Positions 39,344 to 42,188 of a stretch of 64,000 nt of DNA are shown here, in pieces. Made by a program: the position numbers and the translations under genes. A model generated the notes under the pieces. It worked only from the letters and a program-made list of their open reading frames with translations. It was not told the DNA's origin and did no database searches. The number at the start of each line of letters is the position of its first letter. Positions within the stretch are counted from its first letter, which is position 1. This DNA comes from Escherichia phage Turkey5, in sequence record PQ471516.1, one strand, 5' to 3'.

Positions 39344-42133
39344 ATGTTAAACAACAACATTGATAATATTATACAACTCATATATGGACACCATAAATTT
39401 CTTGAAAGAAACACTGGTGATACTATTGACCCTACGGTACAGCACTATGCTATCAACGATCAGGGTGTATTAGCAAACAACCGTCACTTCATTAACCACT
39501 CCGCGATGGAAGGTCAACCAAATGGTGATGGAACAACAGAAGGTCAAAGTGTTCTTATTCTTGGTTACATTTATGCTTATCTTGCAACAAACGATGATTT
39601 GTTTCTAGAAAAAGCAAAATGGTACTGGGATGCATATCATCAGTACTTCTACAATGGTAGAGAATTTCCTGATCCTCCTACGCCATTACAATGCAACTGG
39701 ATTGTGAACGCCAAAGAACCAATTCTTGCGAACTGGCCTTTAGCTGACGATGGCTGGCCTACTCATGGTGGCTTTAAAGGTATTGAGTTCCCTTTCGTTA
39801 ATGGTCTGTGTAAAGTTCCTCACGATGCACCATATTACGGTCAATTTCTTGATAAGGTAACATTTGCATTTAAAGGTGCATTAGCATGGAACCAAATCAA
39901 CGCATCAGTGAAAGCATTACTACCAGATGGTAGTACTGATTGGGATAACCCAGGTGAGCAGTATGATGTGGACTGGGTAATTGATTACTTAGGTCGTAAG
40001 ATTGACTGGGACGGTAACATTCTAGCTGAAGGTTTTGATGAATCAGAGAAAGGCACTGTACAGCTAAAAGATACAACTATTAATGGAACATATAAACTGA
40101 ACTTTGCAAACAGACAACCTGTTGAATACGGTGGTGTTTATATTGAACGTAACCAAATGCAACATAACCGCCCATTGCACGTTCCAATTAGTTTAGAATT
40201 TGCTGATAACGCGAGTGATGCTGAATTATGGTTCAGTGATGCTTCTTACTTGTTATATAAAATAACAAAAGAAAGAAAACATTATCTTGGTTGGAAATGT
40301 TCACTACTTACTTGTTATGCATACGGTGATATTGATGCAAGAGATAAATTCTTCCGTCAAAGTACTTTAGTTACTACTCCTTATACTGATGGTATTTCTT
40401 ATGAGTATTTCTATCCTAGTACTGCAATCGCTGAATTTGGTAGAAACTCACTTGGTTATATAACTATTAAGCAATTGGAAAGTGCACAAAGTACACTTGA
40501 GCAACAGGCTATCTGGTTCAGATTGAATACTTCTTCCAGCTTAGTTGTAGATTACGGTGGTGTTTGTGTTGATGGAAAACCATTATCATTTAAACCAGTA
40601 CTGGAATTATCAAAAACTAAAAATGACCACGATGTTGTACGTTACCGTTGTGGCTTACCAGAAAGTACTAATAGAGATATTAAGCATTCTGTTACTCCGC
40701 TAAGTGCATTTGTTCGTGAGAAAAAAGATGATGGTTCATCTTACATTATTGCTGATAGCAGAATCGTAGTTCCTTACGGTGATGGTACTTCTGAAATGCA
40801 ATACAGTACTGATATTCTTGTTACTCGTCGTGACACTATTAACCAATTAGTTTGTGGTGAAGATGATGGTGCAGTTATTGGTTTCTGGTTACTTGATTCC
40901 GGTAAATCTGAAGTGAAAGCTTTTACTTATCGTTCATATGAAGATGATTTTAACATCCGTATCGTTGATGATAATGGATGGCGTTGGTGGTGGATGATTC
41001 CTGCAACCCACGGTGAATGGAGTACAATAGAATTAACTGCTGATACTTTACATTTATCTGGATGGCAACCAAATCACCCTGATGATCCAGATCCTGCTGC
41101 TCCGGTATATACTGAATTAGAAGATATTACCATTCTTCCTGACACCACTCCTGTAAATGGAGTTGCAGTACTGGATTGGTATTGTTTAAACGAGCTACCA
41201 GAACTGTACAACAACGAAGATGGTGATGATTACACAATGGCATTCGCCATTACAATTGCTGGTGAGAGTGCTTATACGGCTCTTTTAGGGGATTGCGTAA
41301 TCAAAGATTATTTGCTAAACTCATTACATTATACACCAGGAACTATCCCGTTCTCTAACATTACCGACCCATATGCGAGTCAGTACTCTGGATGGCGTGG
41401 ATTACCATATCCTGGATACCAATCACCAGTGATTTATTGTTTTGAAGATGTAGCAGTTGATTATACACGTCTTGGAAATATGGTTGATTTCATGAAAGAT
41501 TCCCAAGAATGGTTTACTGCACAATTCGGTACTGTTGGTCCTTGTGCTCAAGCATATGTATGGAACCGTTGGGATAACCTGAAATATGGTGAACCAGATA
41601 CGTTTACTATGTTACACTGGGGTGATCAAGCGTGGAGTGGTTATGAGCCTCGTGCATTCTTTGGTGCATGTAGAGCATGGCAAGAACTCCATGACCGTGG
41701 TGCAGAAGTTCCTCAAACAATTATTGATTTCTGTGAGAACTGGATTCATTTCTTGATTAAGTTTCAGAAAGACAATGATGGTCGTTCTCCGACTATATTC
41801 AACAAAGATGGTACAGTTGAAGGTCCAGATTGGGACTTCACCGGACATATGTGTGGATTGTGGTTGGCTGGTGCATGTTGTGCTGGGCTGGCTGGATGTA
41901 CCATTGAGGGATTAGATGAACTCGCTGATGGTTTAGTACTGGAACTCCAGAACAACTATGTGGTAGTTTCTCCTGGCTCTGTTATGAACGGTTCATGGAG
42001 TCCGGGTGTTCGTGAAGGTACTGATAATGGTATGTTCTTCGGATTCTGGGCTGGTGAGATTATGCGTGGTTTAGGATTGTACTCACTTTACCGTCTTAAC
42101 ACACCTAACCGTTATGCTGCATTTCCTGGTTGA
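39344..42133 (+). CDS. large Trp/Gly/Asp-rich protein, possibly fiber-associated or enzymatic
   Basis: 929 aa ORF immediately after fiber-like gene; WRWWWMIP and Cys cluster MCGLWLAGACCAGLAGC; no motif recognised. Confidence 0.5.
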   Translation: MLNNNIDNIIQLIYGHHKFLERNTGDTIDPTVQHYAINDQGVLANNRHFINHSAMEGQPNGDGTTEGQSVLILGYIYAYLATNDDLFLEKAKWYWDAYHQYFYNGREFPDPPTPLQCNWIVNAKEPILANWPLADDGWPTHGGFKGIEFPFVNGLCKVPHDAPYYGQFLDKVTFAFKGALAWNQINASVKALLPDGSTDWDNPGEQYDVDWVIDYLGRKIDWDGNILAEGFDESEKGTVQLKDTTINGTYKLNFANRQPVEYGGVYIERNQMQHNRPLHVPISLEFADNASDAELWFSDASYLLYKITKERKHYLGWKCSLLTCYAYGDIDARDKFFRQSTLVTTPYTDGISYEYFYPSTAIAEFGRNSLGYITIKQLESAQSTLEQQAIWFRLNTSSSLVVDYGGVCVDGKPLSFKPVLELSKTKNDHDVVRYRCGLPESTNRDIKHSVTPLSAFVREKKDDGSSYIIADSRIVVPYGDGTSEMQYSTDILVTRRDTINQLVCGEDDGAVIGFWLLDSGKSEVKAFTYRSYEDDFNIRIVDDNGWRWWWMIPATHGEWSTIELTADTLHLSGWQPNHPDDPDPAAPVYTELEDITILPDTTPVNGVAVLDWYCLNELPELYNNEDGDDYTMAFAITIAGESAYTALLGDCVIKDYLLNSLHYTPGTIPFSNITDPYASQYSGWRGLPYPGYQSPVIYCFEDVAVDYTRLGNMVDFMKDSQEWFTAQFGTVGPCAQAYVWNRWDNLKYGEPDTFTMLHWGDQAWSGYEPRAFFGACRAWQELHDRGAEVPQTIIDFCENWIHFLIKFQKDNDGRSPTIFNKDGTVEGPDWDFTGHMCGLWLAGACCAGLAGCTIEGLDELADGLVLELQNNYVVVSPGSVMNGSWSPGVREGTDNGMFFGFWAGEIMRGLGLYSLYRLNTPNRYAAFPG

Positions 42134-42157
42134 CAACAAAATTTAAACTGATATAAT
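42130..42157 (+). promoter_or_regulatory. sigma70-like promoter TTGACA-16-TGaTATAAT
   Basis: consensus hexamers overlapping the stop of the upstream gene. Confidence 0.45.
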
Positions 42158-42188
42158 GAGAACTTCAATATGAGGTTCTCATTTTTTT
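42158..42188 (+). terminator. rho-independent terminator
   Basis: gagaacttca ata tgaggttctc then T7. Confidence 0.65.

Follow-up and report, generated by a model that had tools for sequence, protein, structure and literature searches.

A predicted terminator/promoter cassette at the 3′ boundary of a tail-gene unit in Escherichia phage Turkey5, a jumbo phage of the genus Asteriusvirus

We analysed a 64,000-nt stretch of Escherichia phage Turkey5 (accession number PQ471516.1; one strand, hereafter the window, whose positions serve as coordinates), and in particular the 67-nt spacer behind a tail gene in which a sigma70-type promoter and a terminator-like hairpin overlap, i.e. the interval from the stop codon at 42131-33 to the Shine–Dalgarno (SD) sequence and ATG of the next gene. 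The upstream gene (39344..42133, + strand), taken from the list of open reading frames (ORFs), encodes a 929-aa tail protein (phrog_2871 tail protein, E = 0; annotated as 'tail formation protein' in phage vB_EcoM_JNE01, hereafter JNE01) and is itself preceded by a tail fiber protein gene (38731..39342). Downstream lies a gene for an acyl-carrier-protein (ACP)-like protein of 131 aa (42201..42596, + strand; phrog_18343 and phrog_5934), followed by an Rz-like spanin, a protein of unknown function, an HNH endonuclease and another unknown protein. The window matches JNE01 (355 kb, genus Asteriusvirus) at 97.8 % identity, and the 121Q/PBECO4 group is in places about 77 % identical to it. Asteriusviruses encode a sigma factor and no RNA polymerase, and depend on the polymerase of the host (PMC11895373, PMC7247149); promoters of the sigma70 type therefore fit this genus.

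The promoter consists of the -35 hexamer TTGACA (42130..42135, + strand; direct reading and consensus scan), a 16-nt spacer and the extended -10 element TG-a-TATAAT (42149..42157, + strand; TG at 42149-50, TATAAT hexamer at 42152-42157), which gives a consensus score of 12/12 plus the TG. A preliminary description of this DNA had placed this motif over the end of the 929-aa gene, and indeed the TGA stop codon (42131-42133) falls within the -35 hexamer. The same description had put a strong terminator about 5 nt past the promoter. While the terminator itself holds up, the distance does not, since the hairpin (42155..42183, + strand; from folding, sequence scan and allele comparison) begins so early that its 5′ arm (42155-42167) overlaps the final 2-3 bases of the -10 hexamer. 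The hairpin reads AATGAGAACTTCA-ATA-TGAGGTTCTCATT, with a stem of 12-13 bp, of which four are G-C pairs and one is a G-U pair, and with AAT/ATA as the loop. It is followed by a T7 run, the U-tract (42182..42188, + strand; direct reading), and then by the SD sequence AAGGTG (42189-94) and the ATG (42201-03) of the ACP-like gene (42189..42203, + strand; start as in the JNE01 annotation).

Folding of the region gave -17.7 kcal/mol, with z = -4.4 against dinucleotide shuffles, and the hairpin alone accounts for -14.9 kcal/mol. Considering that it lies 22 nt past the stop codon on the coding strand, with U7 directly after it, the hairpin has the layout of an intrinsic terminator, and termination is predicted on these grounds. 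Rfam and tRNA scans of the window returned zero matches, i.e. no known RNA family.

Transcription from sigma70 promoters usually starts around 7 nt (range 5-10) after the -10 element. Applied to this spacer, that distance predicts a start zone at 42162..42167 (+ strand), which lies wholly within the 5′ arm, just as had been proposed. According to folding, an RNA arriving from upstream would carry a hairpin of -15.5 kcal/mol directly before U7, whereas RNAs begun at each of the positions 42162-42167 retain just -2.3 to -3.1 kcal/mol.

Chance hardly accounts for promoters of this quality. The window contains five perfect TTGACA-N16-18-TATAAT sites, each of them on the + strand, compared with 0.14 expected from dinucleotide shuffles counting both strands, and none of 100 shuffles reached five. 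Sites scoring at least 10/12 are likewise biased (47 on the + strand, 9 on the - strand), while weaker matches (at least 9/12) show no excess over shuffles in the window, so that the signal is confined to the strong sites. As a second test we used ECO103 4-12-1, an independent, unannotated 121Q-like genome of 350 kb, in which the coding strand carries 294 sites of at least 10/12 (30 of them perfect) and the other strand 104, none perfect.

The spacer of JNE01 is identical to that of the window and thus uninformative on conservation; divergent relatives were therefore found through protein searches. In 121Q, UB, PBECO4 and SD-1/SD-6 the spacer reads TTGACA-17-TATAAT-c-AGAGAACTTCA-ta-TGGAGTTCTCT-T7/8-ataaggtg...ATG, and in A4 TTGACA-15-TGaTATAAA-ct-AAGAGAACTTC-atga-GAGGTTCTCTT-T7. 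The -35 hexamer is invariant in all orthologous spacers, the T-run measures T6-T8 in all of them, and in every allele the hairpin follows the -10 element at a distance of 0-3 nt and folds at -12.4 to -14.9 kcal/mol. Stem pairs were compared by folding each allele, the MAFFT alignment having lost the stem register. The first pair beyond the GAGAAC/GTTCTC core is T-A in the window, whereas 121Q and A4 have A-T there, so that both sides have changed. Furthermore, the 3′ arm carries GAGG in the window and A4, and GGAG in 121Q, by which the G-U wobble moves one position with all pairs kept. Because both changes preserve pairing, selection appears to act on an RNA stem and not on a DNA palindrome, although the events are few. 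The composite is kept across the genus although the ACP-like gene next to it has diverged to about 37 % identity, and the orthologous site in UE-S1 was marked as a terminator by its annotators.

The same geometry recurs elsewhere. We defined the offset as hairpin start minus -10 end and considered promoter–terminator pairs within +/-120 nt on the + strand of the window. All five pairs overlap, with offsets of -39, -2, +1, +1 and +5, and the four that share one 8-nt bin (-2 to +5) correspond to P ~6e-8 versus the flanking background. Besides the element at 42130, the window holds a second composite after the HNH endonuclease gene (43905..43962, + strand; TTTACT-17-TATAAT, hairpin 43934-43955, T7), conserved in 121Q, UB, A4, UE-S1, PBECO4 and CMSTMSU; a third (46299..46363, + strand; TTTACA-17-TAAAAT, then 4 nt, hairpin 46332-46354 and a T-run; offset +5); and a fourth with a perfect promoter (52443..52507, + strand; TTGACA-17-TATAAT, hairpin 52472-52498, T-run). 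The third and fourth have orthologs in ECO103 4-12-1, and all three share with the element at 42130 the layout from stop codon to SD/ATG. A promoter-like site at 51999 was judged spurious, as it lies within coding sequence and is not conserved in JNE01. We also rejected the idea of a repeated mobile cassette, since the four copies in the window share no sequence (33 % identity outside the -10 element versus 29 % expected).

On the coding strand of ECO103 4-12-1 the offsets form discrete classes: a terminator followed by a promoter at -60 to -120 (14 pairs); the -35 hexamer inside the hairpin at -32 to -40 (10 pairs, eight of them with sequence-related stems of the GGTTGACT...GGTCAGCC type); the hairpin across spacer and -10 element at -18 and -23 (two pairs); and the hairpin directly after the -10 element at +2 to +5 (five pairs versus 0.31 expected, P ~2e-5). 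This last class comprises the orthologs of the window composites 42130, 46299 and 52443 together with two others. With a start at +7, the other composites with offsets of at most +2, as well as the 121Q and UE-S1 alleles, would fall from -13..-17 to -0.4..-3.9 kcal/mol.

The class in which the -35 hexamer lies inside the hairpin is also represented in the window, at 34946-34985, where the hexamer (TTGACG/TTGACT) is part of the terminator hairpin and the start lies beyond the U-tract. The eight related copies in ECO103 4-12-1 (reverse-complement coordinates 38062, 41536, 44803, 47555, 338687, 341929, 342113 and 344768) fall into four at about 3 kb distance from each other at 38-48 kb and four within around 6 kb at 338-345 kb. 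Their stems, of GGGATTGACTCCGGTCAGTCCC and AAGGTTGACTTCGGTCAGCCTT types, form the sole sequence family among the composites of that genome. Of the families in the genus, this class resembles PeSLs most closely (PeSLs are the promoter/stem-loop cassettes of T4-type phages discussed below).

What the composite in the tail spacer borders becomes clear from gene order. In UE-S1, ph0011, CMSTMSU, TH47 and vB_Ec-M-J a nucleotidyltransferase gene precedes the ACP-like gene, which in 34 other Asteriusvirus records has orthologs of about 37 % aa identity; in the window the same nucleotidyltransferase (76 % aa identity) sits before the tail genes. Since relatives have those two genes adjacent, the tail fiber and tail protein genes make up a present/absent module between them. 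Phages of the CMSTMSU type pass from the nucleotidyltransferase stop codon over 10 nt with an SD sequence to the ATG, with neither promoter nor hairpin, which fits the role of insulator plus restart that had been suggested for the element. In UE-S1 and ph0011 the tail genes are deleted, and what stays is the complete composite together with ~28 nt from the end of the tail gene, the ph0011 promoter being slightly degraded (18-nt spacer, TATAGT) and its hairpin intact. Homologous tail genes also occur in the unrelated phages ALITA and NINP13076, where the next structural gene follows after 8-9 nt and there is no composite, so that we rejected the notion of a composite travelling with the tail gene; in Goslar the gene behind the homologous tail gene follows after ~205 nt. 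The C-terminus of the tail protein has relatives of 40-56 % in ~530 records, and the spread of these over many unrelated phage groups suggests frequent horizontal exchange.

At the left edge of the module (38626-38730) no sigma70 site was found, and a late-promoter-like ATAAATA motif is present at 38670..38676 (+ strand), for which a promoter function is suggested by depletion and position. With 6 copies observed versus 28.4 +/- 5.5 expected, this heptamer is underrepresented about 5-fold in the window, and the + strand carries five of them (20687-20693, 28858-28864, 38670-38676, 59141-59147 and 62206-62212). All but one of these five stand 40-60 nt upstream of ORF starts, including those of the tail fiber/tail protein module, the tail sheath gene and a 900-aa ORF. 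For CBB and GAP32, two related phages, an ATAAATA core has been predicted to act as the late promoter (PMC5259590), and it is likely that ATAAATA forms the late-promoter core for the genus Asteriusvirus as well. The T4 late promoter TATAAATA is absent from the + strand of the window and has a single occurrence versus 7.4 expected, and CTCTAAATA shows no enrichment. Also at this edge, a 42-aa ORF (38715-38843) with a good SD sequence, TAAGGA, overlaps the putative tail-fiber start in another frame; its equivalent is annotated as gene 507 in 121Q.

Taken together, we favour, with a probability of roughly 70 %, the interpretation that the element is a composite, PeSL-like terminator/promoter cassette that closes a late tail-gene unit at its 3′ end. 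Our computations show the sequence elements themselves, that they exceed chance, are conserved and recur, and that truncation costs folding energy; from these results we infer that the promoter is active, where it starts, how efficient termination is and when each step takes place. A polymerase coming from upstream, probably as part of a late unit transcribed from near the ATAAATA at 38670 across the tail-fiber and 929-aa genes, would transcribe both hairpin arms and U7 and terminate at ~42184-42190. The host sigma70 holoenzyme, or one with the phage RpoD-like sigma factor, would bind the -35 and extended -10 elements at 42130-42157 and initiate at ~42162-42167, inside the 5′ arm. Because only the 3′ arm is then transcribed, the promoter-derived RNA should be unable to form the terminator and should pass the U-tract, so that the ACP-like gene and the genes behind it would be expressed from a leader of 35-40 nt. 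The proposal that upstream transcripts stop while restarted ones escape is thus supported computationally, by the folding loss, the conserved juxtaposition and the recurring geometry. The overlap of promoter and hairpin can be seen as a consequence of fitting four signals (stop codon, promoter, terminator and ribosome-binding site) into a spacer of just 67 nt. In evolutionary terms, a self-contained late unit (38670 to ~42190) may have been inserted in a run of non-structural, early-type genes, with the fused promoter re-supplying those downstream.

Several observations weigh against this interpretation. The stem is comparatively A/U-rich, with its four G-C pairs, and a literature search of transcript mapping retrieved no 5′ or 3′ transcript ends for Asteriusvirus. 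Bases +6 to +9 after the -10 element are all pyrimidines (CTTC), which makes the exact start uncertain (alternatives are A42162 and A42167), although every candidate still lies within the 5′ arm. In the truncated RNA a 5-bp AUGAG/CUCAU mini-hairpin of -2.3 kcal/mol remains and abuts U7, so that some self-termination or self-attenuation is possible. Moreover, escape is less clear-cut in some members than in others. In the third composite, given its offset of +5, the hairpin is largely retained for a start at +5 to +8, and the offset +5 composites and the A4 allele keep -6 to -8 kcal/mol, i.e. much of the hairpin, at a start of +7 and may self-attenuate. Finally, the promoter is not shielded from occlusion, since an upstream polymerase crosses it before terminating.

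It is tempting to go further and propose that Asteriusvirus jumbo phages systematically use such 'origin-selective' terminators, and that the cassettes also mark, or perhaps even promote, the gain and loss of horizontally acquired host-range (tail) modules, as PeSLs do in T4-type phages; we put this forward only tentatively and regard it as rather unlikely in this general form. If true, one 60-nt element would halt all incoming transcription and yet stay invisible to its own transcripts.

Other explanations fare worse. It is improbable, in our view, that the terminator alone is functional and the promoter motif inactive, either as a relic or silenced after host takeover, with the downstream genes served by read-through or other promoters. 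The degraded promoter beside an intact hairpin in ph0011 would agree with this, as would the absence of Asteriusvirus transcript data from the literature, the ACP-like gene of CMSTMSU-type phages, which needs no promoter of its own, and the fact that matches of at least 9/12 are no more frequent than in shuffles. However, a 12/12 promoter plus TG is very unlikely to arise by chance, given 0.14 perfect sites per window on both strands, the strong sites favour the coding strand, and TTGACA and the -10 element were kept where the flanking genes have diverged to ~37 % aa identity. In addition, a strong terminator without restart would starve the genes downstream.

No more credible is a self-attenuating promoter, where a sizeable share of its own transcripts would stop at U7, through the mini-hairpin or a more upstream start, lowering expression or yielding an RNA of ~25 nt. 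The AUGAG-GUU-CUCAU hairpin does abut U7 in all truncated RNAs, and the energies retained by the offset +5 composites and the A4 allele point in the same direction. Nevertheless, a 5-bp stem with two G-C pairs and -2.3 kcal/mol is far under typical terminator hairpins, the 121Q allele retains only -2.6 to 0 kcal/mol at +7 to +9, and before the spanin spacer there is no other obvious promoter for the downstream genes.

The cassette might also act mainly in recombination, i.e. as a linker for the insertion, deletion and exchange of modules such as the tail-fiber/tail-protein pair, which would be compatible with a transcriptional role and which, as the main function, we consider slightly less probable still. 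In its favour, the composite lies exactly at the 3′ edge of the present/absent tail module, the second composite adjoins the mobile HNH endonuclease gene, UE-S1 and ph0011 lost the module and kept 28 nt of the tail gene along with the composite, and the relatives of the tail protein C-terminus are widely scattered. Two of the four indels relative to JNE01 are at regulatory spacers, one of them at the perfect promoter at 20407, and their flanks are not homologous. On the other hand, the four window composites have only the hexamers in common and thus lack homology on which recombination could act, no matching cassette is present at the left edge of the module, and beside homologous tail genes in other phages the composite is missing. 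A recombination role of the PeSL type is therefore neither supported nor excluded here.

Lastly, we rejected, as highly improbable, a DNA operator through which a phage or host regulator would block the promoter: the palindrome does lie over the -10 element and the start region, where repressors classically bind, but the G-U (T/G) pair shifts between lineages with pairing kept, which makes sense only in RNA, a U-tract directly follows, and the unrelated stems of the other composites argue against a common operator.

Beyond the composites, the comparison with JNE01 revealed further variable regions. The perfect promoter TTGACA-16-TGcTATAAT at 20407-20434 (region 20392-20441) has its -10 element bracketed by a 6-bp stem, GCGTCC...GGACGC, with no U-tract, and is located exactly at an indel junction. 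At this point JNE01 contains an additional 1.3-kb gene, which is preceded by a terminator hairpin of its own and followed by a different promoter. The segment 50629-52123, which holds a lysozyme-domain protein (51194-52120), is only 77.7 % identical to JNE01, compared with 98-99 % in its flanks, and JNE01 carries extra small genes (204 nt and 633 nt) on both sides of it, i.e. the patch is locally hyper-variable. Around 190 nt with a small hydrophobic ORF (3973-4163) are absent from JNE01. Two segments of ~205 nt (15164-15368 and 15413-15617) cross-match each other's JNE01 counterparts at 75.6 % and represent an internal tandem duplication in the single minus-strand gene of the region. A block CTCTAAATAATATCATCAACTATAGGAGATATTATTATG at 42604-42642, which precedes the Rz-like spanin gene, hardly varies among 121Q, UB, A4, UE-S1, PBECO4 and CMSTMSU, in contrast to the preceding ACP-like gene, which is ~37 % identical in the same comparison. 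It may function as a promoter or in the control of translation.

Among known systems, the closest parallel is provided by the PeSLs (promoter-early stem-loops), composite sigma70 promoter/stem-loop cassettes of the T4-type phages RB49/phi1, PST/T4 and nt-1/KVP40 (Arbiol et al. 2010, PMC2839356; Comeau et al. 2014, PMC4122927), of which those of RB49 and phi1 showed strong promoter plus terminator activity in lacZ fusions (PMC2839356). PeSLs span the interval from stop codon to SD/ATG and come in five positional subclasses, including those with the stem-loop overlapping or downstream of the -10 element (PMC2839356, PMC4122927). The element described here shares with them a near-consensus sigma70 promoter with an adjoining stem-loop between stop and SD/ATG, the proposed division of labour, in which the stem-loop ends upstream transcription and the promoter restarts it, and possibly a link to variable or inserted genes; ECO103 4-12-1 shows the same set of positional classes. 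However, three features tested for strict membership came out differently. Copies of PeSLs are conserved over ~75-100 bp, whereas those in the window are unrelated in sequence; the AT-rich block upstream of the -35 hexamer is lacking, the 20 nt there being coding and 50 % A+T versus 64 % for the window; and the host, an Asteriusvirus jumbo phage of ~350 kb, stands outside the T4-type phages (Straboviridae). Moreover, in our element the predicted start falls within the stem-loop, which is followed by a canonical U-tract, and the formation of mini-circles is a trait described for PeSLs. We found neither a statement in the PeSL papers of the logic by which a start inside the 5′ arm evades the terminator, nor documented start sites inside terminator hairpins in the phage literature on ONT-cappable-seq.

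The element also resembles the lambdoid morons (PMC2839356), i.e. an inserted, horizontally acquired unit with its own start signal (here the ATAAATA at 38670) and its own 3′ terminator that insulates the neighbours. In contrast to morons, the unit is made up of structural tail genes that point the same way as the genes around them, and its terminator merges with a promoter that would restart transcription of the resident genes downstream. Tandem spacers with a terminator followed by a promoter, such as the 14 pairs at -60 to -120 in ECO103 4-12-1, reach the same outcome, i.e. the old unit is stopped and a new one started. Here, however, the order is inverted and overlapping, with the promoter before the hairpin; the terminator thus lies in the initially transcribed region and would be disabled only because the start falls inside it.

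Considering these likenesses, the element is, in its layout, a member of the already described class of PeSL-like cassettes and not a new mechanism, the new aspects being the phage lineage and the particular geometry. It would extend PeSL-type cassettes beyond T4-type phages and yields a testable transcription map for a poorly studied genus of jumbo phages, with a late tail unit closed by a terminator and restart promoter. For annotation, the lesson is that overlapping promoter and terminator predictions should not be dismissed as conflicting. The geometry with the start inside the 5′ arm, the logic of which had not been spelled out before, may also offer a compact insulator part for synthetic biology.

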